DNA of 64,000 nucleotides. It comes from Candidatus Omnitrophota bacterium. Its GTDB lineage: Bacteria; Omnitrophota; Gorgyraeia; Aquiviventales; Aquiviventaceae. The stretch is taken from the NCBI GenBank assembly GCA_016193195.1, contig JACPSQ010000086.1, positions 17,299-81,298 on the forward strand, written 5' to 3'. This document shows positions 11,722-64,000 of this stretch, piece after piece; the first letter of the stretch is position 1, and the number at the start of each line of letters is the position of its first letter. The notes under the pieces are model-generated. The model saw nothing but the letters and a program-made list of their open reading frames with translations, was not told where the DNA came from and did no database searches. A program made the position numbers and the translations under genes.

Positions 11722-11725
11722 ACCG

Positions 11726-28750: not shown

Positions 28751-28754
28751 CGCG

Positions 28755-37309: not shown

Positions 37310-37319
37310 AAGGAGACCC

Positions 37320-47218: not shown

Positions 47219-47228
47219 GCGGCGGACG

Positions 47229-47993
47229 ATGCTGAAGCTGGCGGTGGCGAAGGACGAGCTGGTGAGCTACGTGAGCCGGCAGCTCAATCACCTCTTCCCG
47301 GACGGCCGCGCGGCGCGCCGGGCGGCGCTGGCGCCGTCCGTCGAGGAAGCGCTGGCGCGCGTGGAGCGCGGGTTTTCCTCGATCCGGATGAAGTACTACA
47401 GCGATGGCGCGGGGGGAGCCCTGTTCGATCCTCTGCACACGGATCAGTACGCGGCGTTCTTGTATCTCCTGAGCCATGCGATCTACCGGGCGGGGGGTGA
47501 CCTGAGGGTGGCCGCCAAGGTGTACGCGCTCAACAAAGCGCTCCACGCGCTGGACGTCTACTACGAGGTCGAGCTGCCGGAGATTTTCGTCTTTCATCAT
47601 CCGGTGGGAACCGTCCTGGGCCGCGGGCGGTACGCCAACTACCTCTTCGTCCATCAGGGGTGCACGGTGGGCTCGGATATCAACGACCGCTACCCGGCCC
47701 TCGGGGAAGGGATCATCATGTATACGGGCAGCGCGGTCTTCGGGAACTGTGCCGTGGGGAGCAACTGCTGGCTCTCCGCCGGGACGCAGGTGCTGGAGAC
47801 CGATGTGCCCTCCGGCACGGTGGTCTTCGGACGATCGCCGGATCTGGTCATCAAGCCGACCCGGCGCGACGTGATCAAGGACGTGTTCGGCGCGCTTCCC
47901 GCAAGGCCGGACCGGCTGGAGAGCCGCGCGCGGCGCGGATCGGACGCCGGCGCACAACGGCGGGGCCTTCTCCTTCAAAGGACCCGGGCATGA
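47229..47993 (+). CDS. Hexapeptide-repeat (left-handed beta-helix) acyltransferase
   Basis: C-terminal hexapeptide repeats (GCTVGSD...GNCAVGSNCWL) with a CysE-like N-terminal helical domain. Confidence 0.6.
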   Translation: MLKLAVAKDELVSYVSRQLNHLFPDGRAARRAALAPSVEEALARVERGFSSIRMKYYSDGAGGALFDPLHTDQYAAFLYLLSHAIYRAGGDLRVAAKVYALNKALHALDVYYEVELPEIFVFHHPVGTVLGRGRYANYLFVHQGCTVGSDINDRYPALGEGIIMYTGSAVFGNCAVGSNCWLSAGTQVLETDVPSGTVVFGRSPDLVIKPTRRDVIKDVFGALPARPDRLESRARRGSDAGAQRRGLLLQRTRA

Positions 47994-49045: not shown

Positions 49046-49809
49046 TGGGCGGCGCGGAACGCGTCCTTGCGGTGATCCCGGCGCGCGGCGGCTCCAAGGG
49101 GCTGCCGGGAAAAAACGTGCGGCTGTTTGCGGGGCTGCCGCTGATCGCCCATTCGATCCGGTGCGCCAAGATGTGCTCCCAGATCGACCGGTGCGTCGTC
49201 TCGACTGACTCGGCTGACATCGCCGCCGTGGCGCGCCAGCATGGCGGCGAGGCGCCGTTCCTGCGTCCGCCGGAGCTTGCGCGCGATGAGAGCCCGATCT
49301 GGCCGGTGCTCCAGCACGCCCTGGGAGCGGTTGAGGAGTCCGAGCGAGCAGCCTACGCGTTCGTCGTGCTGCTCGATCCGACGTCGCCGTCGCGGGAGCC
49401 CTCAGATGTGGCGGAGGCCCTGCGCCGCCTGCGCGCGACCCCAGCAGCCGACGGCATCATCGGCGTCTCGCGACCCGAGTTCAATCCGATCTGGCACTGC
49501 GTGGTCGAGCGCACGGGGTGGATGGCGGACCTGATCGAGGCCGGCGCCCGCTATGAGCGCCGGCAAGACGTCCCGACGGTCTATCGCATCAACGGCTCGC
49601 TCTATCTGTGGCGGGCGGAGTTTGTGCGCCGATGCGAGCAGCCTTGGCGCCGCAGCGGCCGGCATCTCCTGTACGAAATCCCCGAGGCCCGCGCCATGTC
49701 CATCGATACCGTTGAGGAATTTGGGCGCGCGGAGACCCTGGTGAACGCCGGGCTGATCCGGCTGCCGTGGCTCGATGGGAGTTTGGTCAGGCCGGCGGGG
49801 GTGGCATGA
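49045..49809 (+). CDS. CMP-nonulosonic acid synthetase (acylneuraminate cytidylyltransferase family; NeuA/LegF/PtmB-like)
   Basis: VIPARGGSKGLPGKNV, the CTP_transf_3 signature. Confidence 0.8.
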   Translation: MGGAERVLAVIPARGGSKGLPGKNVRLFAGLPLIAHSIRCAKMCSQIDRCVVSTDSADIAAVARQHGGEAPFLRPPELARDESPIWPVLQHALGAVEESERAAYAFVVLLDPTSPSREPSDVAEALRRLRATPAADGIIGVSRPEFNPIWHCVVERTGWMADLIEAGARYERRQDVPTVYRINGSLYLWRAEFVRRCEQPWRRSGRHLLYEIPEARAMSIDTVEEFGRAETLVNAGLIRLPWLDGSLVRPAGVA

Positions 49810-50651
49810 CCCGGCTCCGGGAGCGCGCCACGAGGGCCCCGGCGGCCAAGGGATCGCTCGGCCGGCTCATGGATCTCTCCAGCCGGCGGGCGCTGGTCAC
49901 CGGCGGGGCGGGGCATATCGGCTTCGTCGTGGCCGAGTCGCTGGTCGAGCTGGGCGCCAAGGTGGCCCTGTTGGATGTCGAGGCCGACGCCTGCCGGCAG
50001 CGCCTCGCGCAGCTCTCGCGGCGGCGGGCGGACAGCGCCGTGGCGGTGCCGTGCGATCTCCTTGATGAGGCCTCCACGCGCCGCGCGGTCCAGGCCGCCG
50101 CGGCCCAGTGGGGAGGCTTGGAGATCCTGGTCCACTGCGCCGGGTATGTCGGCACGACGAAGGTGGACGGCTGGGCGGTCCCGTTCGGCGCGCAGACCGT
50201 CAAGGCGTGGGACGCGGCCATGCGGGTGAATGTCACCTCGGCGTTCGTCATGGTCCAGGAGGCCAAGGAGGCCCTTGCACAATCCGGGCATGGCTCGGTG
50301 ATCTTCCTCTCCTCGATCTACGGGGTGGTGGGCCCTGACCCGCGCCTCTATGCGGAATCCGAATTGGCCAACCCTGCAGGTTATGGGACCTCCAAAGGCG
50401 GGCTGTTGCAGCTCATGCGGTATCTGGCGACGACGCTGGCCCCGCGGGTTCGCGTGAACGCGGTCTCGCCTGGCGGCGTCTGGCGCCACCAGCCGGAGGC
50501 GTTCGTCCAGCGGTATCTGGCGCGCACCCCGTTGGGCCGGATGGCCACTGAGGAAGATGTGAAGGGCGCGGTGGCCTATCTGGCCAGCGACCTCTCTGCG
50601 TACGTGACAGGGCACAACCTGGTCGTCGACGGGGGGTGGACGGCATGGTGA
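49806..50651 (+). CDS. Short-chain dehydrogenase/reductase (PtmA-like context)
   Basis: ALVTGGAGHIGF and YGTSKGGLL (YxxxK). Confidence 0.75.
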   Translation: MTRLRERATRAPAAKGSLGRLMDLSSRRALVTGGAGHIGFVVAESLVELGAKVALLDVEADACRQRLAQLSRRRADSAVAVPCDLLDEASTRRAVQAAAAQWGGLEILVHCAGYVGTTKVDGWAVPFGAQTVKAWDAAMRVNVTSAFVMVQEAKEALAQSGHGSVIFLSSIYGVVGPDPRLYAESELANPAGYGTSKGGLLQLMRYLATTLAPRVRVNAVSPGGVWRHQPEAFVQRYLARTPLGRMATEEDVKGAVAYLASDLSAYVTGHNLVVDGGWTAW

Positions 50652-51697
50652 GGGCCGTGATGATCGCCGGTCACCGGCTGGGAGCCGAATCCCCCTGCTT
50701 CATCGTGGCGGAGGCCGGCGTCAACCACAACGGCGATCTTAGGACGGCCCGGCGACTGGTGGACGTCGCGGTTGAGGCGCGGGCCGATGCCGTGAAGTTT
50801 CAGACGTTCAAGGCTGAGCGGCTCGCGACGGCGGCGGCGCCGAAGGCCCGCTACCAGCGCCGGACGCCGAAGGATGCCGAATCTCAGCTTGAGATGCTCA
50901 GGCGGCTTGAGCTCTCGCCCCAGGCGCACCGGGCGCTGGCGGACTACTGCCGCAGGCGCACGATCCTGTTTCTCTCGAGCCCGTTCGATGAGGAGAGCGT
51001 GGAGGCGCTTGCCCGTCTCGAGGTACCCGCCTTCAAGATCGCCTCAGGGGAGCTGACGAATCTCCCCCTGCTCGAGCGGATCGCGCGCACCGGCCGGCCA
51101 GTCATCCTGTCGACGGGGATGTCGACGCTGGAGGAGGTCCACGCGGCCGTGCGGGCCTTGCGCGGCGCCGGCACCACGCAGGTGGTGCTGCTGCACTGCG
51201 TCAGCAGCTACCCTGCCAGGGCCGCGGATGCGAATCTGCGGGCCATGGCCACGCTGGCGAGGGCCTTCCGGGTGCCGGTGGGCTACTCGGACCATACGCC
51301 GGGCGTGGAAGTGGCGCTCGCAGCGGTGGCGCTGGGGGCGTGCCTCATCGAGAAGCACGTTACGCTTGATCGCGCCCTCCCCGGACCAGATCACCGGGCG
51401 TCGCTTGAGCCGCAGGAATTCGCGGCGCTGGTTCGCGGCATCCGGACGGTCGAGCTGGCGATGGGCGACGGGCGCAAGCACCCCGCCCCCGGCGAGATCC
51501 AGATGGCGGCTGTGGCGCGCAGGAGCTTGGTGGCGGCTCAGGATGTCCGGGCCGGCACGCGGTTCACCGAGGCGCTCATCGCGATCAAGCGTCCGGGGAC
51601 GGGACTCACGCCCGCCCTGAGGCCGCGCCTGGTCGGGCGCGTCGCCAAGGCGGATATTGCGGTAGGGACACCCCTGACGTGGGAGATGGTCGCATGA
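50636..51697 (+). CDS. neuB: Nonulosonic acid synthase (NeuB/LegI/PseI family)
   Basis: FIVAEAGVNHNGD...AVKFQTF, the NeuB TIM-barrel signature, with a C-terminal SAF/antifreeze-like domain. Confidence 0.85.
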   Translation: MDGMVRAVMIAGHRLGAESPCFIVAEAGVNHNGDLRTARRLVDVAVEARADAVKFQTFKAERLATAAAPKARYQRRTPKDAESQLEMLRRLELSPQAHRALADYCRRRTILFLSSPFDEESVEALARLEVPAFKIASGELTNLPLLERIARTGRPVILSTGMSTLEEVHAAVRALRGAGTTQVVLLHCVSSYPARAADANLRAMATLARAFRVPVGYSDHTPGVEVALAAVALGACLIEKHVTLDRALPGPDHRASLEPQEFAALVRGIRTVELAMGDGRKHPAPGEIQMAAVARRSLVAAQDVRAGTRFTEALIAIKRPGTGLTPALRPRLVGRVAKADIAVGTPLTWEMVA

Positions 51698-51713
51698 AAG
51701 GAGGCAGGCGCGG

Positions 51714-51917
51714 ATGCCCAAGTTTCTGAAAGGGAACTACCGGTTGCCGAAAGGCAAGGCCACACTAGCAAGGAAACAGGCGCGCAAGGATCTGACCCAG
51801 CAATTCGAGGAACGCGCGCTGGCGAAGCTGGGAGGAAGCCTCTGCTTCGTCATGAAGAAAGGGACGTTCGTCTGGACCGACGAGGCTGATGAAGGCGCTC
51901 GCCAAGCATCTGGTTGA
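51714..51917 (+). CDS. Small basic hypothetical protein (67 aa)
   Basis: A strong Shine-Dalgarno (AAAGGAGG, 51697-51704) lies 9 nt upstream of the ATG. The N-terminus is Lys/Arg-rich. No known domain. Confidence 0.3.
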   Translation: MPKFLKGNYRLPKGKATLARKQARKDLTQQFEERALAKLGGSLCFVMKKGTFVWTDEADEGARQASG

Positions 51918-52914
51918 CCGCATGGACCGGCTGACCGCCGCACGGTCAGTCGAGGCGGCGGTCAAGAACGTCCAGGCCAATCAGCCCTACATCCGTCTGA
52001 CGATTGCGGATCTGGCCGCGCAGGCGCGCCGGTCTCCTCCGGACTCGGCGGTCGTCATCGGGGCCGGCCCGAGCCTGCACCGCCGCAACCCCGTCGCCCA
52101 GCTCCTCGAGAGCGGCTATGAGGGCGCGGTGGTCGCCGCCGACGGCGCGCTGGGCTATTGCTTGCGCAACGGCTTGGTGCCGGAGTACGTCGTCACCTTG
52201 GACCCGCACCCGGCGCGGGTCTGCCGGTGGTTCGGAGATCCGGAGCTCGAGTCCCGGCGGGACGGGGACGACTACTTCCGGCGGCAGGACTTGGATCCCT
52301 ATTTGGGAGTGGAGGAGTTCAAGCGGAATCGAGCGTTGATCGAGCTGGTCAACCGTCACGGTCCCTCCATCAAGGCGATCATCTGCACCAGCGTGGCCTC
52401 CAACGTGACCAAGCGGTGCGTGGAGTCGGGGATGGAGCTCTACTGGTGGAACCCGCTGGTGGATGACGTCGAGCAGCCCAAGAGCCTGACCCGCCGGCTC
52501 CACCGCCTGAACGGCGCCCCGTGCATGGTCAGCGGCGGGAATGTGGGGGCCTCGGCGTGGGTGGCCGCCAGCCAGGTGCTGGGCGCTCGGGAGATCGCCG
52601 TCACGGGGATGGACTTCAGCTACCCGCCGGGGACGCCGATGGAGAAGACGCAGTACTTTAAAGAGCTGGTGGAGCTCTTTGGCAAGCGCGCCCACGACGC
52701 CTTGATTGTGGTTAGGAATCCGCATCTCAACGAAACGTGGTTGACGGATCCGGCGTACTACTGGTACCGCGAGACGTTCCTCCGGCTGGCCGCCCAGGCC
52801 GAGGCGGTCACGTACAACTGCACCGAAGGCGGGATCCTGTTCGGCAAGGCGGTCCGGTGGACGTCCTTGCGGGCCTTCCTGGCGGCCCGGCGCGCGGCCG
52901 AAGCGGTCCATTGA
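51889..52914 (+). CDS. DUF115 / MptE-like (Maf-type) domain protein, candidate nonulosonic-acid transferase
   Basis: VVIGAGPSL and the conserved acidic blocks are typical of the MAF_flag10/DUF115 domain. Confidence 0.45.
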   Translation: MKALAKHLVDRMDRLTAARSVEAAVKNVQANQPYIRLTIADLAAQARRSPPDSAVVIGAGPSLHRRNPVAQLLESGYEGAVVAADGALGYCLRNGLVPEYVVTLDPHPARVCRWFGDPELESRRDGDDYFRRQDLDPYLGVEEFKRNRALIELVNRHGPSIKAIICTSVASNVTKRCVESGMELYWWNPLVDDVEQPKSLTRRLHRLNGAPCMVSGGNVGASAWVAASQVLGAREIAVTGMDFSYPPGTPMEKTQYFKELVELFGKRAHDALIVVRNPHLNETWLTDPAYYWYRETFLRLAAQAEAVTYNCTEGGILFGKAVRWTSLRAFLAARRAAEAVH

Positions 52915-52917
52915 GCC

Positions 52918-54522
52918 ATGGCGAAAATCCTCTTCATCAATCCGGTGATTCGCGAAGAAGACGATCCCAAGCACGTGCCCTACGGGATCGCGCTCTTGGC
53001 GGCCCTTGCCATCCAGAAGGGCCACAAAGTTCAGGTCTACGACGCCAATGGCTGGCGGCTGGGCGATGAAGCCTTGCGCGAGGCGATCGAGGCGGATGAG
53101 TGGGACGTGATCGCCTCCGGGTGCATCACCACCGGCTACGGGTCGCTGAAAAAGATCGTCCAGTGTGCCAAGCAGTATGCGCCGCGCGCGGTGGTGGTGG
53201 TCGGCGGCGGGGTGCTGACCAGCATGCCCTTTGAGATCATGACGTTCCTTCCCCAGGTCGACGTCGGGATCGTGGGCGAGGCCTTCGTGACGTTGCTCGA
53301 GCTGCTGGAGCGGATCGATCGCCGCGAGCGGGATTGGTCGGCGGTCAAGGGCGTGATCTATCGGGCGGCATCCGGCGAGCTGCAGCTGACGGAGATCCGT
53401 CCCCTCATCGGCCGCGAGGCGCTCGATCAGCTGCCGTATCCCGCCTGGGAGCTGTTCCCGCTGGAGCTCTACTGGAAACACAGCCAGCTGCTCTACAGCG
53501 AGGAAGCATTCACGTCGAAGCGCCGCCTGGACATCAACGCCAGCTACGGGTGCTCTTTGATCTGCCGGTTCTGTTTTCATCTGGGGATCACGGGGGACCT
53601 GAACTATACCAACGCCCCCGGCGGCAAGCGGGATGTGGAATTCACCTACAAGCGGGAGATTCGATGGCACAGCGCCGAGTATGTGGTGCGCATGGTCCGA
53701 TACATGCGGGATCGATTCGGCGTGGACTTCGTGCTCTTCCTCGATGAGAACCTCATGACGATGAACTCCTACAGCCACTGGACGTGGCTGCCTGAAGTGG
53801 CCAAGGCCTGGATCGACGCGGGCTTGCAGCCAAGCTGCCGGCGGGAGAAGAGACCCCATGATACGAAGTGTCGTGGAGTACACTGGGGCGGGACAAGCCA
53901 CGCGACCCTCGTGCGCAAGGATTTGTTGAAGATCCTCTTCGACTCCGGGTGCAGCCAGCTCCTGTATGGGTATGAGTCATTTTCCGACCGCATCCTCCGA
54001 AACGTCGGCAAGGGCACCACCGCAGCGCTCAATGAGCGCTCGCTCAAGTGGACGATCGAGGCCGGCATCCGGCCGATCCCCAATCAGATCATCGGCTTTC
54101 CCGATGAGTTTTTCGACAGCATCCGGGACAGCGTCCGCGCCTGGGAGCGCATGGGGATTGTGGTGAAGCCGTTCTTCGCCACTCCCTACCCGGGCTCCGA
54201 GTGGTATTACACCTACAAGGATCGGATCTTGGAGCAATACAACGGAGACCTGGAAGCGTTCCTGCTGGATCTAGGCGATGCCACGAAGATTACCGCGGTC
54301 ATCAGCGAAAATTTCAACGCCGTGGAGCTGCTCGGCCTGCGCGAGCTCATGGTCAACCGTGACCTCAAGCACATCGATGAGTACGAGCGTCTGTGGCGAA
54401 GCCGGCACGGCGAGCCGTTCATTCCCGATTTTCGACGGTTTCCACGCGTCCAAGCCAAAGACCTCAGGGTCTTACAAACGCAGACGCCATCGCAACCGGT
54501 GGTCGAGGAAGTCACAGCATGA
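52918..54522 (+). CDS. Cobalamin-binding radical SAM enzyme (class B) #3
   Basis: An N-terminal B12-binding-like domain (AKILFINP...VVVVGGGV). SYGCSLICRFCFH is CxxxCxxC. Confidence 0.8.
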   Translation: MAKILFINPVIREEDDPKHVPYGIALLAALAIQKGHKVQVYDANGWRLGDEALREAIEADEWDVIASGCITTGYGSLKKIVQCAKQYAPRAVVVVGGGVLTSMPFEIMTFLPQVDVGIVGEAFVTLLELLERIDRRERDWSAVKGVIYRAASGELQLTEIRPLIGREALDQLPYPAWELFPLELYWKHSQLLYSEEAFTSKRRLDINASYGCSLICRFCFHLGITGDLNYTNAPGGKRDVEFTYKREIRWHSAEYVVRMVRYMRDRFGVDFVLFLDENLMTMNSYSHWTWLPEVAKAWIDAGLQPSCRREKRPHDTKCRGVHWGGTSHATLVRKDLLKILFDSGCSQLLYGYESFSDRILRNVGKGTTAALNERSLKWTIEAGIRPIPNQIIGFPDEFFDSIRDSVRAWERMGIVVKPFFATPYPGSEWYYTYKDRILEQYNGDLEAFLLDLGDATKITAVISENFNAVELLGLRELMVNRDLKHIDEYERLWRSRHGEPFIPDFRRFPRVQAKDLRVLQTQTPSQPVVEEVTA

Positions 54523-55718
54523 GAACGATTGGTGTCGTGACGGTCAACCGGTCGGATTACGGCATCTCCCTGCCGATCCTCCGGCGAATCCAGCAAGAAC
54601 CTGAACTGGCCCTCCACCTGATTGTCGCTGGGGCGCATCTGTCACCGGAGTTCGGGCTGACCGTCACGGCCATCGAGGCCGACGGGTTTCACATAGGCGA
54701 CCGGGTGGAGATGTTGGTGTCGTCAGACACGCCGGAGGGGATTGTGAAATCGATGGGCCTGGGCCTGATCGGGTTTGCGCAGAGCTTCACTCGCCGGCGG
54801 CCCGATATGGTGGTCGTCGTGGCGGATCGCTTTGAGATGCATGCCGCAGCCTTGGCCGCGCTGCCGCTGAAGATCCCCCTCGCGCATGTCCACGGGGGAG
54901 AGCTGAGCCAAGGCGCCATGGATGATGCGCTGCGGCATTCGATCACGAAACTCAGTCACCTCCATTTTGTCTCGACGAAAGAAGCGGCTCATCGCGTCCG
55001 GCAGATGGGGGAGGAGGCCTGGCGTGTGGTTGTGTCTGGCGCGCCCAGCCTTGATCATGTGCGCACGATCCCTCGCCTGTCAATCCAGGAATTGGAAGCC
55101 CGCGTTGGGATGCGTTTGGGGCAGGCGCCGCTGCTGGTGACCTATCATCCCGTGACGCTGGAGTATGAGCAAACCGAATGGCAGATCGGCGAACTGCTGG
55201 CGGCGCTGCAGGCGATCACGCGCCCCATGGTGTTCACGCTTCCCAACCCCGATACCAGCAGCCGAGTGATCCGTCGTATGATCGAGGCCTTTCTCGAGCG
55301 ACAGCCACACGCCAGGCTCGTGGAGAATTTTGGCACTCAGGGCTACTTGAGCATCATGGGCTATGCGGCCGCGATGGTCGGCAACTCCTCCAGCGGAATC
55401 ATCGAGGCACCATCCTTTGAGCTGCCGGTGGTCAACATCGGCACGAGGCAGGAGGGGCGGGTCAGGGCCGACAACGTGATTGATGTGAACTGCGCTCGGG
55501 CCGACATCGCTCAGGGCATCGTTCGAGCGCTTGCTCCGACATTCCGTGCGCGTCTGCGAGGGCTCCACAATCCTTACGGGCAGGGCGATGCGGCTGAGAT
55601 CATCGTTGGGCGGCTCAAGGACATTCCGTTGGATGCGCGGCTTATCCGAAAACGATTCATCGATCAGCCAGGCCAGGCGGATGCGGCCGACCCACAGGCA
55701 AGCCTCTATGCCCGTTGA
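54519..55718 (+). CDS. UDP-/GDP-N-acetylhexosamine 2-epimerase (hydrolysing), NeuC/LegG-like
   Basis: GDRFEMHAAALAALPLKIPLAHVHGGE, the Epimerase_2 core. ATGA-coupled. Confidence 0.8.
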   Translation: MRTIGVVTVNRSDYGISLPILRRIQQEPELALHLIVAGAHLSPEFGLTVTAIEADGFHIGDRVEMLVSSDTPEGIVKSMGLGLIGFAQSFTRRRPDMVVVVADRFEMHAAALAALPLKIPLAHVHGGELSQGAMDDALRHSITKLSHLHFVSTKEAAHRVRQMGEEAWRVVVSGAPSLDHVRTIPRLSIQELEARVGMRLGQAPLLVTYHPVTLEYEQTEWQIGELLAALQAITRPMVFTLPNPDTSSRVIRRMIEAFLERQPHARLVENFGTQGYLSIMGYAAAMVGNSSSGIIEAPSFELPVVNIGTRQEGRVRADNVIDVNCARADIAQGIVRALAPTFRARLRGLHNPYGQGDAAEIIVGRLKDIPLDARLIRKRFIDQPGQADAADPQASLYAR

Positions 55719-56403
55719 CGTGCCGACGTGCGTGATCCTTGGCGGGGGCGGCCATGCGCGCGTGCTCATCGATTGCTTGCGCGCGAGCGAGGTCGCGCTT
55801 CCTTATGCGGTGCTGGATGCGGATCGATCGTTGTGGGGACGTGAGGTGCTCGGCGTGCCGGTTCGGGGTGGAGATGGCTTGCTTCCCGACTTGCTGCGAG
55901 AGGGCATTCGGCATTTTGTCGTTGGGGTGGGCGGGATCGGCGACAACGAACCACGCCGCCGGTTATTTGAGCGGGCCCGGCGACAAGGGCTGACGCCGCT
56001 GCGCGTGTGCCATCCGTCAGCGATGTGTTCGCCGTCGGCGGTCATTGGGCAGGGCACCGTCGTCTTCCCGCACGCGGTGGTCAATACCGGCGCGCGCCTC
56101 GGAGTCAATGTCATCGTGAACACCTCGGCGGTCATCGAGCACGACTGCGTCGTCGGCGACCATGTTCATGTGGCGACCGGAGCTGTGCTCTGCAGCACGG
56201 TGCATGTGGGCGTGCTGGCTCACATCGGTGCAGGGGCTGTCGTGCGGCAATGTCTGACGATTGGTGAAGGAGCCGTGGTAGGCGCTGGCGCTGCGGTTGT
56301 CAGGGACGTTCCTGCTGGCGTCACGGTGTTTGGAGTTCCGGCTGAGCCCGCCGATTCGATCCTCGGTGGAGTGGAAGACCTGCGGCGGGAGAATCTGGGA
56401 TGA
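55708..56403 (+). CDS. NeuD/PglD-family sugar N/O-acetyltransferase (hexapeptide)
   Basis: An N-terminal ILGGGGHARVLID Rossmann-like motif plus C-terminal hexapeptide repeats. Confidence 0.7.
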   Translation: MPVDVPTCVILGGGGHARVLIDCLRASEVALPYAVLDADRSLWGREVLGVPVRGGDGLLPDLLREGIRHFVVGVGGIGDNEPRRRLFERARRQGLTPLRVCHPSAMCSPSAVIGQGTVVFPHAVVNTGARLGVNVIVNTSAVIEHDCVVGDHVHVATGAVLCSTVHVGVLAHIGAGAVVRQCLTIGEGAVVGAGAAVVRDVPAGVTVFGVPAEPADSILGGVEDLRRENLG

Positions 56404-57269
56404 GCATTCGCATCATTCCGCGGCTGGATATCAAGGGTCCAAACCTGGTCAAGGGCATCCACTTGGAGGGGCTGCGCGTCCTGGGAAAACCCGAGCGGTT
56501 CGCCAGGTCCTACTACGAGCAGGGGGCTGATGAGCTCCTCTACATGGATGTGGTGGCGAGTCTCTATGGGCGCAACAGCCTGCTGGAGATCGTGCGGCGA
56601 ACGGCGCAGGAGATCTTTATCCCGCTGACCGTGGGAGGCGGCTTGAGGAGCCTTGAGGACATCATGGCCGTCTTGCGGGCCGGCGCTGACAAGGTCTCGC
56701 TCAACACCGCCGCGGTTGGCAACCCTGAGTTCATCCGGACGGCCTCGCGGCGGTTCGGGTCTTCCACCATCGTGGTCTCGATCGAGGCGATCCGGCAACC
56801 CGACGGGCGCTACCAGGCCTACACGGACAACGGGCGCCAGACGACCGGGCTGGATGCGGTGCAGTGGGCCATCCAAGCCGCCGAGCTGGGGGCCGGAGAG
56901 CTCCTGGTGACGTCGATTGACCGCGAAGGCACCGGCAAGGGGTTCGATCTTGAGCTGACGCGGCGAATCGCCGAGTCGGTGCCGATTCCTGTCATCGCCT
57001 GCGGAGGGGCGGGAACCGTGGAACACGTGGTGGAGGTCATCCGCGAGGGCCGGGCGGATGCCGTGTGCCTGGCTTCGATGTTGCACTACGCCTTCATCCG
57101 TGACGACCCCGGCACGGACGATTTTTCTACGGAGGGCAACACGGAATACCTGAAGACGCGCGGCAAGCTCTCGAGGATCCACGAGGCGAAGTTGCCCCAG
57201 ATCAAGGCGGCGCTGCCGGCGCGGGGCGTCCCGTGCCGCCCGGCCGCGGAAGCCGCTGTCCATGTCTGA
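56400..57269 (+). CDS. Imidazole-glycerol-phosphate synthase cyclase-like subunit (HisF paralog, WbuZ/PseA-system)
   Basis: RIIPRLDIKGPNLVKG...VGGGL... is the HisF fold. Confidence 0.8.
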   Translation: MSIRIIPRLDIKGPNLVKGIHLEGLRVLGKPERFARSYYEQGADELLYMDVVASLYGRNSLLEIVRRTAQEIFIPLTVGGGLRSLEDIMAVLRAGADKVSLNTAAVGNPEFIRTASRRFGSSTIVVSIEAIRQPDGRYQAYTDNGRQTTGLDAVQWAIQAAELGAGELLVTSIDREGTGKGFDLELTRRIAESVPIPVIACGGAGTVEHVVEVIREGRADAVCLASMLHYAFIRDDPGTDDFSTEGNTEYLKTRGKLSRIHEAKLPQIKAALPARGVPCRPAAEAAVHV

Positions 57270-57951
57270 GACCAAGCCGACGCGTGTGGCGATCGTGGAC
57301 TACGGAATGGGGAATCTATTCAGCGTCCAGCAGGCGTGCGCGCAGGCGGGGCTGGCCGCCGCGGTCACGGCGGAGCCGCAGACGGTGCTGGAGACGGATG
57401 CCGTGATCCTGCCCGGCGTGGGTGCATTCGGCGACGCCATGGCCGAGCTGACCCGTCGGGATCTCGTCGTCCCGCTGCGGGACGCCGTCGCCTCCGGCAA
57501 GCCGCTCCTAGGTATCTGCCTCGGGATGCAACTGCTGATGAGCGAGAGTCACGAGTTCGGACGACACCGAGGCCTGAACATCATCGAAGGTGAGGTGGTG
57601 CGCCTCCCGGTCAGCGCGGAGGAGCCGCCGCGGAGGGTCAAGGTACCTGAAGTGGGCTGGAATCCGGTGTGGCCTGTTCGGGAGGACGCGTGGGTGGGGA
57701 GCTTGCTGGAGGGTATCCCGGCGGGTGCGTGCATGTATTTTGTCCACTCCTACTACGTTCGTCCTGTGGATGCTACGCTAATCCTCTCCACGACGACCTA
57801 TGGACCGATCACCTATTGCTCGAGTCTGCAGTTTGGAAACGTCTTCGGCTGTCAGTTTCACCCTGAGCGGAGCGGCCCGGCGGGGTTGAAGATCTACCGG
57901 AATCTGGCCACCAGGCTGGGACGGCTGTATGCGGAGGTTGAGCGGTCATGA
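57262..57951 (+). CDS. Glutamine amidotransferase subunit (HisH paralog, WbuY-like)
   Basis: VAIVDYGMGNLFS...LPGVGAFG...GICLGMQLL is a class I GATase. Confidence 0.8.
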   Translation: MSETKPTRVAIVDYGMGNLFSVQQACAQAGLAAAVTAEPQTVLETDAVILPGVGAFGDAMAELTRRDLVVPLRDAVASGKPLLGICLGMQLLMSESHEFGRHRGLNIIEGEVVRLPVSAEEPPRRVKVPEVGWNPVWPVREDAWVGSLLEGIPAGACMYFVHSYYVRPVDATLILSTTTYGPITYCSSLQFGNVFGCQFHPERSGPAGLKIYRNLATRLGRLYAEVERS

Positions 57952-59180
57952 GCCTTGCGACGGCAGCGGGGAGGGAGGAGGCGCTCGAGTCGAAGTACGG
58001 GCTGCCACGCCAGGTCGTGTTCTGCAGGCGATGTGTCATGTCGAATCAGCGTCCCTGTTCTTCAATCGAATTCCTCCACACGAACACCCACAAGCATCGG
58101 CACCTCCACATTGATGAAGCAGGCGTCTGCGATGCCTGCCGGATGGCTGGGCAAAAAGAGCAGATTGACTGGAACCAGCGCGAGCAGGAGCTGCGGCAAC
58201 TCCTCGACCAGCACCGCCGGAGCGATGGAGAGTACGACTGCCTCGTGCCGGGCAGCGGTGGGAAGGACAGCTGCTATGCGGCGCACATCTTGAAGTACCG
58301 CTACGGCATGCACCCACTGACCGTGACGTGGCCCCCAGGCCTCTACACCGACATCGGCTTGAAGAACTTCCATAGCTGGATCACCGTGGGGGCGTTCGAC
58401 AACGTGACCTTCAGGCCCAATGGCCGCGTTCATGCGCTGTTAACCCGCCTCTCGATTGAGAACCTTCTCAACCCGTTCCAGACGTTCGTCCTCGGCCAGA
58501 AGAACCTTGCGCCGAAGGTGACGATGCGCTACGGGATCAAGCTGATCTTCTACGGCGAGAACGAGGCGGAGTACGGCAACCCGATCGCAGACAACACCAG
58601 CTCCCTGCGTGATCGGGCCTACTACGCGTTCAACGATCTCTCGCGGGTCCACCTCGGGGGCGTGTCGGTGCCGGAGTTGCGGGAGCGCTACGGCCTGACG
58701 CTCAACGATCTGCTGCCCTATCTGCCGGCGGACCCTCTCGAGCTTGAGCGCTCAGGGATTGAGGTGCGGTACCTCGGCTACTACCTGAAGTGGACGCCGC
58801 AGGAAGCCTACTACTACGCCGTCGAGCACTGTGGCTTTGAGGCGAATCCCTTTCGGACGGAAGGCACGTACAGCAAGTACAACAGCCTTGACGACAAGGC
58901 GGACGGGCTCCACTACTACACGGCCTACATCAAGTTCGGGCTTGGACGGGCCAGCTCCGACGCCTCGCAGGAGATCCGCAACAAGCACCTCACGCGCGAG
59001 GAGGGGGTCGCCCTTGTGCGCCGGTTCGACGGGGAATTTCCGGAGCGCTATTTCCGCGAAGTAATGGAGTCTATTGGGATGGCGCCGGAGCAGTTCCTCG
59101 AGTTGTGCGACGAATTTCGCTCACCCCATCTGTGGCGGAAGGAGGGTAACACATGGCAGCTTCGCCACCAGGTCTCCTAG
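57948..59180 (+). CDS. N-acetyl sugar amidotransferase (WbuX/WbpG/PseA-like, PP-loop)
   Basis: An N-terminal Cys-rich region (CRRCVMSN...GVCDACR) and the PP-loop LVPGSGGKDSCYAAH. Confidence 0.8.
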   Translation: MSLATAAGREEALESKYGLPRQVVFCRRCVMSNQRPCSSIEFLHTNTHKHRHLHIDEAGVCDACRMAGQKEQIDWNQREQELRQLLDQHRRSDGEYDCLVPGSGGKDSCYAAHILKYRYGMHPLTVTWPPGLYTDIGLKNFHSWITVGAFDNVTFRPNGRVHALLTRLSIENLLNPFQTFVLGQKNLAPKVTMRYGIKLIFYGENEAEYGNPIADNTSSLRDRAYYAFNDLSRVHLGGVSVPELRERYGLTLNDLLPYLPADPLELERSGIEVRYLGYYLKWTPQEAYYYAVEHCGFEANPFRTEGTYSKYNSLDDKADGLHYYTAYIKFGLGRASSDASQEIRNKHLTREEGVALVRRFDGEFPERYFREVMESIGMAPEQFLELCDEFRSPHLWRKEGNTWQLRHQVS

Positions 59181-59204
59181 CAGGCTGCGGAAATACTCGG
59201 CTCA

Positions 59205-59313
59205 CACCACAGATGACACAGAATGTCCACAGAAGCACAGAGCATTGCTCGTCGAGAACCCCTCTGTGGCTCTGTGGCGTTTCTGTGGTTTTGTGGTGTC
59301 ATCTGGGGTTTTT
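59205..59313 (+). terminator. Long imperfect hairpin followed by a T-run (candidate intrinsic terminator / structured RNA)
   Basis: CACCACAGATGACACAG (59205-59221) pairs with TGTGGTGTCATCTGGGG (59293-59308). An inner stem CCACAGAAGCACAGAG pairs with CTCTGTGGCTCTGTGG. TTTTT follows at 59309-59313. Confidence 0.45.
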
Positions 59314-59341
59314 CAGCACCCTGCTAGACTAACACCGTGCG

Positions 59342-60430
59342 ATGCACACGGACCTGACGACGTTCTGCGTCAAGGCCACGGACCCGCTCCGGGCGGTCGT
59401 GGCCCAGATGGATCGCAATCGCCTGGGCATCGCCCTGGTCATCGATGAAGCGCGGCGGCTGGTTGGCGCGGTCACCGATGGGGACGTCCGCCGTGCGATC
59501 CTGAGCCGGTTGGAGTTCGAGCGGCCTGTTGAAACCCTGCTGGCCCGGAAGGCGGGAACCGCCCATGCGAAGCCGATCACAGCGCGCCAAGGTGCCGATC
59601 GGCAGACGCTGCTCAACGTGCTGCAACAGCATCGGATTCTGCACCTGCCCCTCGTGGATGAACAGCAGCACGTCGTAGGACTGGTGACGCTGGATGAGTT
59701 TGTGCCGGAGAAGGCGTTGCCGATTCAAGCGGTGGTGATGGCGGGGGGGAAGGGGAGCCGCCTGCATCCCCTGACCAACGAGTTGCCCAAGCCGATGTTG
59801 CGGGTGGGCGACCGGCCGGTGTTGGAGATCATCATCGGGCAGTTGCGCGAAGCCGGCATCCGCCAGGTCAAGGTGACGACGCACCATAAGACGGAGAAAA
59901 TCGCCGGGCATTTCGGTGACGGGAATCGTTTTGGGGTGGAGCTCTCCTATGTGGAAGAAGATCATCCCCTGGGCACGGTCGGCGGGCTGGGCCTCTTGGA
60001 GGTTCCAAAAGAGACGACCCTGGTGATCAACGGCGACATCCTGACACGAGTGGATTTCCGGGCGATGCTCCTCTACCACCGAGAGCACCAGGCCGATCTG
60101 ACCGTCGCCGTCCGTCAATACGATGTGAGGGTCCCCTACGGGGTCGTCGAATGTGAGGGGCCAAACGTGCGCAAGATCAGCGAGAAACCCGCCCTCATCT
60201 TGTTTATCAACGCGGGGGTCTATCTGCTTGAACCGGCTGTCTACCAGTATATCCCGAACGGCCAGCGCCTTGACATGACTGACCTGATCCAGCGGCTCCT
60301 CAGCGAGGGGCGAAGCGTCGTGAGCTTTCCGATCCGGGAGTATTGGCTTGATATCGGGCAACGTGAAGACTACGAGCAGGCGCAGGCCGACGTCAAGGAG
60401 TGGGCCGTGGCCAAGCAGGTGACAGGATGA
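59342..60430 (+). CDS. CBS-pair + sugar-1-phosphate nucleotidyltransferase (PtmE-like)
   Basis: N-terminal tandem CBS motifs. AVVMAGGKGSRLHPLTNELPKPML is the NTP_transferase G-loop. Confidence 0.75.
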   Translation: MHTDLTTFCVKATDPLRAVVAQMDRNRLGIALVIDEARRLVGAVTDGDVRRAILSRLEFERPVETLLARKAGTAHAKPITARQGADRQTLLNVLQQHRILHLPLVDEQQHVVGLVTLDEFVPEKALPIQAVVMAGGKGSRLHPLTNELPKPMLRVGDRPVLEIIIGQLREAGIRQVKVTTHHKTEKIAGHFGDGNRFGVELSYVEEDHPLGTVGGLGLLEVPKETTLVINGDILTRVDFRAMLLYHREHQADLTVAVRQYDVRVPYGVVECEGPNVRKISEKPALILFINAGVYLLEPAVYQYIPNGQRLDMTDLIQRLLSEGRSVVSFPIREYWLDIGQREDYEQAQADVKEWAVAKQVTG

Positions 60431-61413
60431 GTCTGTGGACAGGCAAGGCGGTGCTGGTTACGGGAGCGGGTGGATTCATCGGCAGCCACCTGGCCGAGCG
60501 GCTGGTCGAGCTAGGCGCCTACGTCAAGGCCCTGGTCCGCTATCGCTCCAACGGTTCATGGGGTTGGCTGGATCAGATACCGGCGAGAGAGGCAGTTGAG
60601 GTTATTGCAGGCGACCTCTGCGATCGAGAGAGCGTCAGGCAAGCCCTGAAAGGCGCGCAGGTAGTCTTCCACCTCGCCGCGTTCATCGCCATCCCGTATT
60701 CGTACCAGGTCCCCGAGACCTTCGTCCTGGTTAACATCGGGGGGACGCTGAACCTCCTGCAGGCCGCGCGCGACTACGGGGTGGAGCGATTCATCCACAC
60801 CTCCACCAGCGAGGTGTACGGGACCGCCCGCAACGTGCCGATTGACGAATCCCACCCGCTCCAGGCCCAATCACCCTATGCGGCGTCCAAGATCGCCACG
60901 GACAAACTGGTCGAATCCTTCCATCTGTCCTTCGATCTGCCCACCGTGACGGTGCGGCCGTTTAATACGTTTGGCCCCCGACAGTCGGCTCGTGCGATTG
61001 TGCCGACGATCATCACGCAGTGCTTGACCGACACGACCGTGCGCGTCGGCAACCTGACGCCGACCCGTGATATGAATTACGTGAGCGACATCGTCCAGGG
61101 GTTTGTGCGAGCGGCCGAATGTCCCGAAGCGATTGGCCGGACCTTCAACCTCGGCTCAGGGCGCGAAACCAGCATGGCTGATCTCGTGGGCTTGATCGCC
61201 GCCCTGATGGGCAAGTCGCCGGCGATGGCGGTGGAAGACAGCCGGATCCGTCCGGCCCACAGTGAAGTGGAGCGGCTGGTCGCCGACAGCACCGCCGCTC
61301 GAGCGGTCCTGGGATGGGAACCGATCGTGTCGCTTGAAGAAGGGATCCGACTCACGTTCGAGTGGATTCAGGAGCATCTGGATGCCTACCGTCCGGGCAT
61401 GTACGTCCTCTGA
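60427..61413 (+). CDS. NAD-dependent nucleotide-sugar epimerase/dehydratase (LegB/PseB-like candidate)
   Basis: VLVTGAGGFIGSH, HTSTSEVYG and YAASKIATD (YxxxK). ATGA-coupled. Confidence 0.8.
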   Translation: MSLWTGKAVLVTGAGGFIGSHLAERLVELGAYVKALVRYRSNGSWGWLDQIPAREAVEVIAGDLCDRESVRQALKGAQVVFHLAAFIAIPYSYQVPETFVLVNIGGTLNLLQAARDYGVERFIHTSTSEVYGTARNVPIDESHPLQAQSPYAASKIATDKLVESFHLSFDLPTVTVRPFNTFGPRQSARAIVPTIITQCLTDTTVRVGNLTPTRDMNYVSDIVQGFVRAAECPEAIGRTFNLGSGRETSMADLVGLIAALMGKSPAMAVEDSRIRPAHSEVERLVADSTAARAVLGWEPIVSLEEGIRLTFEWIQEHLDAYRPGMYVL

Positions 61414-62632
61414 GCCTCGGGAGGGTACGAAGGGGCGGTGGATTCCGCTGAGCGAGCCGCATCTCGCCGGCAACGAGTGGAGGTATCTCAAGGAGTGCCT
61501 GGACAGCGGCTGGATCTCATCGGCCGGGCCGTTTGTGGAGCGGTTTGAGCAAGCGTTTACCACATACATCAGGGACGGCCGACCGGGAACCCCTGCCGTC
61601 GGAGTCGTCAACGGCACCGCAGGTTTGCATGTAGCACTGCGCGCCGCGCTGGTACAGCCTGATGATGAAGTGCTGGTGCCAACGCTGACCTTTATTGCGC
61701 CGGTCAACGCGATCCGTTATTGCCAGGCGCATCCGGTCTTCATCGATGCGGATCCGCTGACGTGGCAGATTGACGTGAAGCAGGTGGAAGCATTTCTCGA
61801 ACGCGAGTGCGAGGTGAGGCCGGATGTTCCGGGCCCGGGCGTATCGACCAAGACATGTTGGAACAAGCGGACAAAGCGGTGCGTGCGGGCGATCATCCCG
61901 GTACACCTGCTGGGTTTGGCTTGCGATATGGAGCCGCTGATGGCGCTGGCCAGGCGATACCATTTGCGCGTTGTTGAGGACGCCTGCGAAGCGATCGGAG
62001 TGCGTTATGGTCCTTTTCATGTTGGCACACGGGGCCACCTGGGGGTCTTTAGCTTTAACGGGAATAAGACGCTGACGTGCGGCGGCGGGGGGATGGTGGT
62101 GGCGCGCAAGCCATACGCCGACTATGTGCGATACCTGACGACCCAGGCGCGGGATGGTTCGCGGGAATATTATCATCAGGAAATTGGCTACAACTATCGG
62201 CTGACGAACCTGCACGCGGCGATTGGCTTGGCGCAACTGGAGCAGGCGGAGCGGTTGCTGGCGCGCAAACGAGCCATCGCCGCGGCGTACGAACAGGCCC
62301 TGCGCGACGTCGACGGGATCACGCTGATGCCGGCGCCTCCGCACACCGAGCCTGGCTATTGGCTGTACACCATCCTCCTGAGGGAAGGCACGACGGTGGC
62401 TCAGCGCAACGCCGTGCTGGATCGGTTGGCCGCGGAAGATATCGAGGCGCGGCCGTTGTGGCAACCAATCCACACGCAGCCGCCCTACCAGGGCTGCCAA
62501 CGCGCCGGCTCGATGACGGTGGCCAACGACGTGTACGAGCGGGCCGTGAGCCTCCCAAGCAGCGTCGGATTGAACATGGTGGAGCTTGAGCGGTGCGTTG
62601 AGGTCGTTCGCCGGCTTCTTGCAGGAGCATGA
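61382..62632 (+). CDS. DegT/DnrJ/EryC1-family sugar aminotransferase
   Basis: WIPLSEPHLAGNEWRYLKECLDSGWISS is the canonical DegT N-terminus. The only in-frame start upstream is ATG 61382, which overlaps the previous gene by 32 nt. Confidence 0.8.
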   Translation: MPTVRACTSSEPREGTKGRWIPLSEPHLAGNEWRYLKECLDSGWISSAGPFVERFEQAFTTYIRDGRPGTPAVGVVNGTAGLHVALRAALVQPDDEVLVPTLTFIAPVNAIRYCQAHPVFIDADPLTWQIDVKQVEAFLERECEVRPDVPGPGVSTKTCWNKRTKRCVRAIIPVHLLGLACDMEPLMALARRYHLRVVEDACEAIGVRYGPFHVGTRGHLGVFSFNGNKTLTCGGGGMVVARKPYADYVRYLTTQARDGSREYYHQEIGYNYRLTNLHAAIGLAQLEQAERLLARKRAIAAAYEQALRDVDGITLMPAPPHTEPGYWLYTILLREGTTVAQRNAVLDRLAAEDIEARPLWQPIHTQPPYQGCQRAGSMTVANDVYERAVSLPSSVGLNMVELERCVEVVRRLLAGA

Positions 62633-62732
62633 CAGCCTTCATTGAGCGTTTGACCCTGCTTTTTCTCTGGTGAGGCAACGCAACGCCGCGAATTTTTGAT
62701 CAGCACGCGTGCCATATTCTTGGTGTAACCGC

Positions 62733-63710
62733 ATGAAGGTATTCATCAATCCCGAAAGGTCAAAACGGGTGATTACAACAATAGCGATCGGCGACGATTA
62801 CTACAACCCATGGAAAAAATACGCATTCCCGACATGGAAGAAATATTGTGAGCGGTACGGTCTGGGGTTGATTGTGTTCGATGCTGACTTGATTCCAAAG
62901 GACAGCAAAATATGGAAAAAGCCAACCTGGCAGAAGTTGCTTATTGGCAATGCGTTGAAGCGTACGTTGCCGGCCGTGACCGAGGTTTGCTACCTCGATA
63001 GCGACACCTTGATTAACTACACGGCTCCGAATGTGTTTGATGTCTATATCCCTGGAACCATCGGGTTGGTATCTTCACTGAAAAACTTGCCCTATTCCCT
63101 GGAAGAGGTATTACGGCGCATCGCATTTTTCAGACACAATTGTTATGATCAACGTTACCCCCTAGATTCCGCGTTATTCATTTCCGTGGAGCGTTATTAT
63201 CAGTTTCATGGGCTGGCGCCTCAAGCCGACATTGCATGTATGGGGATGTTTCTATTCAATGTGAGCGATCACGCGGAGTTGATGGGAGACTGGTTTTCTA
63301 AATACGACCGGCAGGTACAATCAATGTCGGGGGGCGGTGAAGGAGCCCATCTGAACTACGAGATGCAAAGTTGGGGAAACATTTGTTGGCTTGATTACAA
63401 ATTTCAGGCGATATGGACTTATGAAATGGCTTGGAAGTATCCATTTTTATATGATTTCGGTCGAAGAAAGAAGGCGTTGATCAGAGAATGTATCGAGGCG
63501 TCGCTTTTTACAAATTATTTCTTACATTTTGCCGGTTCTTGGTATGAGAACGATATGTGGCAGGTGGGTGGGGTGCTTGTGGATCTACGCCAAAGAAAGA
63601 AATTCGAGGATTTCAGTGAATATGTAAGACGTCCTGTATCTGGCGAACCAGTGGGAATAATAAAGCCAAAGAAAACTGACCGTCTCCTGAGGCGGCGCCG
63701 GCCCAATTAA
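62733..63710 (+). CDS. Low-GC putative GT-A-fold glycosyltransferase (DxD; GT8 / Nucleotid_trans-like)
   Basis: VCYLDSDTL (DxD) and LHFAGSWYEN. GC content is visibly lower (about 45%) than the rest of the window. Alternative upstream ATG at 62709. Confidence 0.5.
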   Translation: MKVFINPERSKRVITTIAIGDDYYNPWKKYAFPTWKKYCERYGLGLIVFDADLIPKDSKIWKKPTWQKLLIGNALKRTLPAVTEVCYLDSDTLINYTAPNVFDVYIPGTIGLVSSLKNLPYSLEEVLRRIAFFRHNCYDQRYPLDSALFISVERYYQFHGLAPQADIACMGMFLFNVSDHAELMGDWFSKYDRQVQSMSGGGEGAHLNYEMQSWGNICWLDYKFQAIWTYEMAWKYPFLYDFGRRKKALIRECIEASLFTNYFLHFAGSWYENDMWQVGGVLVDLRQRKKFEDFSEYVRRPVSGEPVGIIKPKKTDRLLRRRRPN

Positions 63711-63737
63711 GGTAGAAAGTACAATAGGCTTATGCAC

Positions 63738-63766
63738 TTGACGCCGGTACCCCCCACCGGTAGTAT
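63738..63766 (+). promoter_or_regulatory. Candidate sigma70 promoter for the transposase
   Basis: TTGACG, then a 17-nt palindromic spacer CCGGTACCCCCCACCGG, then TAGTAT. It ends 9 nt before the ATG at 63775. Confidence 0.4.
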
Positions 63767-63774
63767 CGGCGGGG

Positions 63775-63999
63775 ATGGACGACTACCCGAGGACGTTGAT
63801 GGAATTCGAGCGGCGCTTCTCCACCGAGGACGCCTGTCGGGCGTACCTGGTCCAGCTGCGCTGGCCTGATGGGATCTAGTGTCCCCGCTGCCATCAGCGG
63901 AAGGCATGGGCCATCACGCGTGGCCGGTACGAATGCGCACGGTGTGGCTTCCACATCTTCGTGTTGGCCGGCACGATCTTTCAAGATACGAAGCAGCCG
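63775..63999 (+). pseudogene. IS1595-family (ISXO2-like) transposase N-terminal Zn-ribbon domain with an in-frame TAG; truncated by window end
   Basis: MDDYPRTLMEFERRFSTEDACRAYLVQLRWPDGI, then TAG at 63877-63879, then CPRCHQRKAWAITRGRYECARCGFHIFVLAGTIFQDTKQP continuing in the same frame. This is the conserved IS1595 N-terminus. Confidence 0.6.
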
Positions 64000-64000
64000 C

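Follow-up and report, generated by a model that had tools for sequence, protein, structure and literature searches.

The stretch of DNA analysed here (the window) comprises 64,000 nucleotides from Candidatus Omnitrophota bacterium (GenBank assembly GCA_016193195.1, contig JACPSQ010000086.1, positions 17,299 to 81,298 of the forward strand). Near its right end a gene with a low content of guanine and cytosine (GC), 62733-63710 (+), is located between a legionaminic-acid-type gene cluster and the first 276 bp of a 1014-bp insertion sequence of the IS1595 family (63725-64000, +), in which the transposase frame is interrupted by a TAG codon. The features described in an earlier note on this DNA were all found at the positions given there, and the interpretation offered in it is partly supported. 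The arrangement is probably the result of three ordinary events superimposed on each other, namely import of a cassette, later insertion of the IS1595-family element and a nonsense mutation, and the probability of this reading is estimated at about three in four.

In the first event, a low-GC cassette would have been joined, by horizontal transfer or by cassette replacement, to the 3' end of a resident legionaminic-acid-type cluster. The cassette would encode a probable Mn2+-dependent retaining glycosyltransferase of the GT-A fold (with D89-x-D91 and H265) and a TylF-type O-methyltransferase just past the window. The transferase would most likely add an alpha-linked sugar from a nucleoside diphosphate sugar (NDP-sugar) in the assembly of a glycan bearing nonulosonic acid. 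In the second event the 1014-bp element, which has a host-like composition, would have entered the AT-rich spacer between the two cassette genes, duplicating AAGTACAA. The third would be a C-to-T change that turned Gln codon 35 (CAG) into TAG in the zinc-ribbon DNA-binding domain of the transposase.

The IS1595-family element and its insertion site

The ends of the element were set by comparison with independent metagenome copies (L005-L010). It is 1014 bp long in seven independent contigs, with a GC content of 0.656 and the termini TAGGC...GCCCTA, and TAGG...CCTA ends are common to all copies. A contig that extends past the window contains the whole element (L002 3072-4085), the end of which would be at window-equivalent position 64738. 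The left terminal inverted repeat, TAGGCTTATGCACTTGACGCCGGT (63725-63748, +), pairs with L002 4062-4085 beyond the window, where the earlier note had proposed a search for inverted repeats. The repeats are imperfect, and ungapped arms of 30 nucleotides are 77% complementary. The element is flanked by an 8-bp target-site duplication, AAGTACAA, with its left copy at 63717-63724 and an identical right copy beyond the window at L002 4086-4093. The locus without the element is predicted to read ...GGTAGAAAGTACAATGGACACGG....

Other perfect 8-bp duplications of the related element are ATATCTAA (L006) and TTTGGTTT (L010), so that target duplications of 8 bp are seen in three independent insertions. 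All three duplications are AT-rich, which might explain why the element landed in a low-GC segment and suggests that it prefers AT-rich targets. Three contigs (L007, L008 and L009) join the left flank of one insertion (TTTGGTTT) to the right flank of another (ATATCTAA) when compared with L006 and L010, a pattern expected of assemblers that collapse a multi-copy element. In a further copy, L053, the flanks agree at only six of eight positions.

The transposase reading frame (63775-64000, +) runs off the window and has 306 codons in all, of which residues 17-58 form the IS1595 zinc ribbon. The match to PF12760 (Zn_ribbon_IS1595; E = 7.7e-16) bears out the N-terminus of an IS1595-family transposase described earlier, and NF033547 is matched with 201.7 bits against a cut-off of 75 and PF12762 by the called product of 244 amino acids. 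The element resembles IS1595 (ISXO2-like DDE) elements in having an N-terminal zinc ribbon (PF12760), a DDE domain (PF12762/NF033547), a length of about 1 kb with a single open reading frame, imperfect terminal inverted repeats and an 8-bp target duplication. It differs in that the zinc ribbon of the copy found here is interrupted by a nonsense codon (CAG to TAG). Its nearest relatives in databases, copies of 97-98% identity, come from environmental metagenomes. A search of plasmids rendered only distant IS1595 relatives, for example named elements on Ralstonia plasmids that are 67-73% identical over part of the length.

A promoter-like sequence, TTGACG-17-TAGTAT (63738-63766, +), is situated inside the element with its -35 box overlapping the left inverted repeat. 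Both hexamers are kept in three copies (L005-L007), and the sequence is probably the promoter of the transposase gene, as judged from its place and conservation. It had been described as near-consensus and has only 9 of 12 matches; three such sites were found in the 1.6 kb scanned compared with 1.8±1.1 in shuffled sequences, so the site alone is not beyond chance. The 17-nucleotide spacer between the hexamers (63744-63760) is palindromic (CCGGT-ACCCCCC-ACCGG) and kept among the copies, and this putative binding site may be recognised by the transposase or by a regulator.

The DNA to the right of the element shows what has been separated. The last base of the right-hand duplication begins an ATG, from which a frame of 12 codons reads MDTDPRFLNFTK (L002 4093-4128, window-equivalent about 64746-64781). 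It matches the N-terminus of a TylF-type methyltransferase in another locus (L014; ...DQRFLNFTKYVRR), a protein that begins MNNSEQVLDQRFLNFTKYVRR and is similar in other copies. The element therefore comes after the transferase-like gene and directly before the start codon of its usual partner, and it separates the methyltransferase both from the upstream partner and from the native ribosome-binding region. In eight other loci a TylF-type O-methyltransferase gene follows the transferase-like gene after 30-157 nucleotides (L049 being the same sequence as L012). The earlier view that this place is the edge of the cluster does not agree with these findings, since the cluster appears to continue past the element with the start of the methyltransferase gene.

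Two observations at the right junction weigh against the explanation by three events. The methyltransferase is visible for 12 codons only, and the four Logan contigs that cover the junction all end within about 90 bp of the right end of the element. Furthermore, the junction is not uniform: L004 departs from L002 ten bases past the duplication (L004 3283-3311, ...ATGGACACGG|TATACTGCTCCCCTTTAAGACACCGGCCG; L002 4103-4128), which could be due to heterogeneity in the population, a further insertion or a branch in the assembly graph.

The duplication belonging to the element itself and its position before the methyltransferase gene indicate that it was inserted into an existing two-gene cassette and did not deliver it. 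Delivery had been proposed earlier because of the close position of the two, and the insertion sequence would then have brought the transferase gene as a composite transposon or by co-mobilising adjacent DNA. The element and the gene are indeed neighbours, passenger genes are known from other elements of the IS1595 family, and the readable DNA to the right of the element reaches only about 40 bp. However, the gene is outside the inverted repeats, and all copies of the element have the same length of 1014 bp, with no passenger. It is the only copy in the window, where neither a second copy nor a fragment was found in the 63.7 kb upstream, and the perfect 8-bp duplication flanks this single copy, unlike what a composite transposon would give. 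The GC content is 65.6% in the element compared with 45.7% in the gene, and the pair that is split here is adjacent, with no such element, in the eight other loci. Delivery by the insertion sequence is therefore very improbable.

The in-frame TAG codon

The TAG at 63877-63879 (+) is codon 35 of the transposase frame and is located within the zinc ribbon (DGI*CPRC). As had been noticed from the sequence, it is the only internal stop in the 306 codons, and the frame runs for 271 codons beyond it. Three copies that are 97-98% identical (L005, L052 and L053) have CAG at this codon, more distant relatives have Q or R, and the nearest intact transposase (P0121, 98% identical) reads DGIQCPRC. Judged from these copies, the TAG is a C-to-T nonsense mutation of Gln-35. 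Gene callers give the product of 244 amino acids from an internal GTG, and this product has no zinc ribbon. When the 34-amino-acid N-terminal peptide was looked up it was found in L004 only, which gave no further context for the TAG allele.

The earlier note had left room for a sequencing error or a rare suppressed stop, in which case the TAG would be no defect and a full-length transposase would still be made, whether by assembly error, read-through or recoding. The intact state of the rest of the element with its 271 codons of frame after the TAG is in line with this, and low-level natural read-through of UAG occurs in bacteria. Against an error, the TAG is present in the metagenome-assembled genome (MAG) and in four independent run assemblies (Logan; SRR12113385, SRR12113390, SRR12113419 and SRR12113425; contigs L001-L004) that agree with the window over 2.5-7.3 kb without a mismatch and continue beyond its end. 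Against suppression, the near-identical copies carry CAG, TAG is the normal stop of the WbuX gene and of the transposase gene itself, and the other genes of the window have full-length family matches and no in-frame TAGs. A harmless TAG is thus hardly credible, and recoding of TAG was rejected because TAG ends WbuX and the transposase. The four assemblies are from related runs and represent one clonal population; they exclude an assembly error but cannot show to what extent the allele is fixed, and this should be weighed against a reading in which the mutation is one of three completed events.

With a nonsense codon at position 35 in the zinc ribbon, this copy is not an intact autonomous element. 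It is probably unable to make a full-length transposase and is probably non-autonomous, as predicted from its reading frame, and it could still be mobilised in trans because the ends are intact. No damage is visible elsewhere, be it in the ends, the duplication or the DDE region, and the mutation is therefore probably recent. To call the insertion sequence decaying, as was done previously, is an overstatement when one point mutation is the only visible defect.

Origin and predicted product of the low-GC gene

The gene at 62733-63710 (+) encodes 325 amino acids, ends with TAA and belongs to an unnamed family of probable retaining GT-A (GT34/GT8-like) glycosyltransferases. Its GC content is 0.457 and its GC content at third codon positions (GC3) is 0.528, whereas the fourteen upstream genes have 0.61-0.70 and 0.71-0.89, respectively. 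The previously reported drop in GC was borne out when GC and GC3 were computed: no 978-bp segment of the window has a lower value, the rest has 0.617±0.036 (z = -4.4) and the next lowest segment has 0.525. The tetranucleotide distance to the rest of the window is 0.61 compared with 0.30±0.04, which makes the gene an outlier by about 8 standard deviations. The GC profile falls in the intergenic transition after the stop codon of the LegC-like gene (62633-62732, GC 0.52), which bounds the segment of foreign composition on the left. The start codon ATG at 62733 fits the N-termini of homologues (MKV...) and the GTG upstream at 62709 does not. The protein is 100% identical to HYY58_04275 at NCBI, a 'hypothetical protein' in a MAG of Candidatus Omnitrophica.

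The closest relative (L050) is 78% identical in amino acids and 83% in nucleotides. It is itself low in GC, as the earlier note had expected of near relatives, but is located beside DNA of 65% GC and points to no donor. The ratio of non-synonymous to synonymous substitution rates (dN/dS) between the two genes is 0.16, and the low-GC gene is therefore under purifying selection. No transferase paralogue was found within the window.

These data support the earlier suggestion of horizontal acquisition in that the gene is compositionally foreign in GC3 and in tetranucleotides. Recent acquisition or cassette replacement is probably the best explanation, with a direction and timing that the composition can only suggest. 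It is nevertheless conceivable that the low GC is native and stems from the amino acids of the protein and from a weak codon bias, in a glycan gene that has long been resident and is poorly expressed. K, Y, F, N and W are abundant in the protein, relatives in genomes of medium and high GC typically have values 3-9 GC points under those of their flanks, and two further, milder GC dips of the window are also within sugar-pathway genes. Several points count against foreign origin. Part of the GC drop is intrinsic to the family, relatives running a few points under their flanks; genes for surface-glycan transferases are often AT-rich; and no donor lineage was found, the closest relative likewise adjoining high-GC DNA.

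However, GC3 is mostly free of protein constraint, and it is 0.53 here, whereas the fourteen adjacent cluster genes have 0.71-0.89. In 27 relatives the GC content of the gene follows that of the host (23-56%) and falls short of that of its flanks by no more than 9 points, and homologues resident in hosts of about 60% GC have a GC content of 52-56% and a GC3 of 0.62-0.74. The deficit of 16-17 points found here is therefore larger than the intrinsic bias of the family. In addition to the outlying tetranucleotide signature, the gene comes after LegC here but after PtmA in most relatives. A native origin of the low GC is accordingly considered unlikely, and import or replacement of a cassette is preferred.

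No Pfam or NCBIfam model matched the encoded protein at E <= 0.1, the same scans of ten distant family members were empty except for one marginal GT8 match, and a narrow family profile (A1) found nothing among PDB sequences even at E <= 10. The family is large, with 951 matches among clusters at 90% identity, all unnamed, and 880 representatives of clusters at 50% identity at E <= 1e-3.

An AlphaFold (AF2) model built from 26 sequences is confident, with a predicted local distance difference test score (pLDDT) of 88.8 and a predicted template modelling score (pTM) of 0.86. Foldseek rendered 226 PDB chains at E <= 1e-3, and the top 50 were all GT-A transferases with a probability of 1.0. The best PDB and viral matches are of the GT34, GT8, GT6 and GT24 types, as expected for a GT-A fold, and include PBCV-1 A64R, WbbM, the ABO transferases, glycogenin, UGGT, XXT1 and viral GT8/GT34 proteins.

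A broader profile (A2; 45 sequences, down to 21% identity) found PBCV-1 A64R (2p6w) in PDB with E = 1.3e-4 and XXT5 more weakly, and both alignments fall on the DxD motif. Only Y38, D89, D91, G171 and H265 are invariant in the A2 alignment. D89-S-D91 (62997-63005, +) is a candidate DxD motif for binding of metal and nucleotide sugar; it comes after strand 84-88 of the model and is aligned with the DxD of solved enzymes, including those of A64R and XXT5. H265 in LHFAG (63525-63527, +) is a candidate third metal ligand as in GT8-type enzymes. Retaining enzymes of the GT8 type bind their metal, Mn2+, through a D-x-D motif and a distal His, and by analogy with this chemistry H265 might have the same role.

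The GT34 type, represented by PBCV-1 A64R, plant XXT1/XXT5 and yeast GMA12/MNN10, gives the best fold match (Foldseek E = 4e-7, probability 1.0). A64R is also the only significant sequence-profile match in PDB, in an alignment of residues 27-97 that stops at the DxD (WLDsDv in A64R, YLDSDT here). The template modelling score (TM-score) is only about 0.46 and the identity 9-13%, and the low-GC protein is longer by about 100 residues, among them a conserved C-terminal part (YEMAWKYPFLY...LHFAGSW) to which nothing corresponds in A64R; unlike these proteins, it is also bacterial and tied to nonulosonic acid operons. GT8 enzymes of the glycogenin and LgtC type share the GT-A fold and the D-x-D with a distal His in an HF.G-like motif (LHFAG here). 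Glycogenin fold matches have E of about 1e-5 and there are marginal profile matches over residues 164-225, but the Pfam model Glyco_transf_8 gives no match to the protein.

The protein is thus a probable retaining GT-A (GT34/GT8-like) DxD glycosyltransferase, a predicted activity for which fold, profile match and motifs argue together. It is not a member of GT8 or GT34 as curated. Glyco_transf_34 has sub-threshold matches in 8 of the 26 family members; for the protein itself PF05637 (GT34) gives E = 0.11 and 12.7 bits with a cut-off of 23 bits, and the best of the 26 has E = 0.0038. PF01501 (GT8) matches one distant member only, under the cut-off (E = 0.0096). The DxD glycosyltransferase that had been proposed from the sequence is therefore probable from fold and motifs, but no curated family model supports it. 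The lack of any match at threshold to the Pfam GT8 and GT34 models or to NCBIfam speaks against a transferase, as do TM-scores of only 0.40-0.47 against solved transferases.

The protein might instead be an enzyme of another kind, similar in fold to nucleotide-diphospho-sugar transferases, which during biosynthesis modifies the nonulosonic acid or the form of it that is activated with cytidine monophosphate (CMP). Such a role would agree with the missing curated models, with the fact that in several genomes the gene is translationally coupled to the PtmA-like gene, the last one for the biosynthesis, and with an identity across phyla (51-63%) that equals or exceeds that of NeuB, CMP-synthetase and PtmA of the same loci, which is unusual for an acceptor-specific transferase. 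On the other hand, the invariant triad of D-x-D and His and the alignment to the DxD of A64R and XXT5 are hallmarks of metal-dependent GT-A transferases, the fold neighbours are all bona fide glycosyltransferases, and actinobacterial members have no nonulosonic acid genes nearby. An enzyme other than a glycosyltransferase has a low probability, and the prediction of a transferase is retained.

The legionaminic-acid-type cluster and the distribution of the family

The genes upstream of the low-GC gene (47660-62632, +) form a legionaminic-acid-type nonulosonic acid cluster of host composition (GC 0.61-0.70, GC3 0.71-0.89), as seen from Pfam and NCBIfam matches. The order of the genes is PtmF-like GFO oxidoreductase, CMP-sugar synthetase, PtmA-like short-chain dehydrogenase/reductase, NeuB/LegI, MptE/Maf-like protein, B12-binding radical S-adenosylmethionine (SAM) enzyme, LegG-like 2-epimerase, PglD/LegH-like acetyltransferase, HisF-like protein, HisH-like protein, WbuX amidotransferase, CBS-nucleotidyltransferase (PtmE-like), LegB-like dehydratase and LegC-like aminotransferase. 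The characteristic set of legionaminic genes is present, including Epimerase_2, PglD_N, CTP_transf_3, CBS with NTP_transferase, GFO_IDH_MocA and adh_short. TIGR04181 (LegC family) is matched with 427.8 bits against a cut-off of 420 and TIGR03569 (NeuB) with 459.6 against 399.65, and TIGR04180 (LegB) is just under its cut-off (427 against 475). The cluster is, by its gene content, a complete legionaminic-acid-type cluster, and the sugar product is predicted from the genes. HisF- and HisH-like proteins together with WbuX are a set that is usually tied to acetamidino formation.

The MptE-like (DUF115/Maf-type) protein, 51889-52914 (+), is encoded inside the cluster, has a weak PseD-like match and is the likelier candidate for the nonulosonic acid transferase itself. 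Maf proteins are legionaminic and pseudaminic acid transferases, and knowledge of them has been called scarce (PMC5420450, PMC9298399). Like Maf (DUF115/MptE-like) proteins, the low-GC protein is encoded within such clusters, but it shows no similarity to them. It has the fold of retaining enzymes that depend on NDP-sugars and not that of the known CMP-sugar transferases, which makes it an unlikely candidate for the legionaminic acid transferase itself.

The nonulosonic acid cluster looks compositionally mosaic even when the low-GC gene is left out: the part from the PtmF-like to the Maf-like gene (47000-53000) has a GC content of 67-70% and the remaining part (53000-62600) 61-65%, with a window mean of 61%. 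The next-deepest GC dips of the window, 11606-13279 and 28701-30311 (+; about 0.53-0.55), both correspond to bifunctional PfkB-kinase/cytidylyltransferase (HldE-like) paralogues. Further upstream there are additional sugar-pathway genes, methyltransferases, radical-SAM enzymes and an ATP-binding cassette (ABC) transporter, and from about 10 kb on the window is mostly DNA for glycan biosynthesis. Markers of a 'sporadic carbohydrate cluster' (NCBIfam) were found at 36990-38162 and 43455-44843 (+), namely the 2-oxoglutarate-Fe(II) (2OG-Fe(II)) oxygenase TIGR04324 and the glycosyltransferase TIGR04372, and three B12-binding radical-SAM enzymes are encoded at 18307-20346, 25381-27207 and 52918-54522. 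Such gene content marks a glycan supercluster that is unusually large and methylates heavily.

In species-representative genomes the family of the low-GC protein is found in Nitrospira, in Beta-, Gamma- and Alphaproteobacteria (including SAR11 and SAR116), in Leptospiraceae, Cytophagaceae, Chlamydiae and Actinomycetota, and in an archaeon. Among 38 loci that were compared (L011-L048), 20 have the gene no more than 10 kb from legionaminic-type genes. It then usually follows them directly, on the same strand, and a frequent order is HisF-HisH-PtmF-CMP-synthetase-PtmA followed by the family gene. The end of the PtmA-like gene and the start of the family gene touch or overlap in L049 and L051. Outside Actinomycetota, relatives are usually placed at the 3' end of legionaminic-acid operons, with a gene for a TylF-type methyltransferase behind them. 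In identity across phyla the family equals NeuB or WbuX from the same loci.

Actinobacterial members are 47-50% identical (L026 9908-10948 in a MAG of Ilumatobacteraceae; also L018-L030 and L042-L044). Their neighbours in freshwater Actinobacteria are ligA, a PASTA Ser/Thr kinase, a major facilitator superfamily (MFS) transporter, a 388-amino-acid protein of unknown function, pyrF and leuA. A strict link between the family and nonulosonic acids was rejected because these members sit among housekeeping genes; they have no nonulosonic acid genes within 10 kb, which weakens a legionaminic-specific role, and the substrate of the family may not be legionaminic-specific.

Literature searches found no description of the unnamed transferase family, and the known legionaminic acid transferases are of the Maf type. 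It is possible, but rather doubtful, that this Pfam-less family of proteins of roughly 314 amino acids (at least 880 clusters at 50% identity), carried by Nitrospira, Proteobacteria, SAR11, SAR116, Leptospiraceae, Bacteroidota and an archaeon, is a new glycosyltransferase family dedicated to legionaminic-acid glycans. It would then act on the nonulosonic acid or on an intermediate bearing it, together with the TylF-type O-methyltransferase. Such a role would account for a conservation equal to that of the biosynthetic enzymes and for the translational coupling to them.

As first framed, the finding has little weight and represents ordinary genome wear. Low-GC transferase genes exchanged horizontally are a routine feature of glycan clusters, and it is common for an insertion sequence to be disabled by a single mutation. 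The lesson is that an insertion sequence adjoining a foreign gene does not mean that it delivered the gene; here the target duplication and the conserved synteny show that the element came in afterwards, probably attracted by the AT-rich DNA. The only part that is mildly novel is the transferase-like family, which is large, unnamed in Pfam and NCBIfam and, outside Actinomycetota, tightly tied to legionaminic-acid operons. The family is found in abundant environmental bacteria and is a reasonable target for biochemical characterisation, because enzymes acting on and around nonulosonic acids are poorly known.

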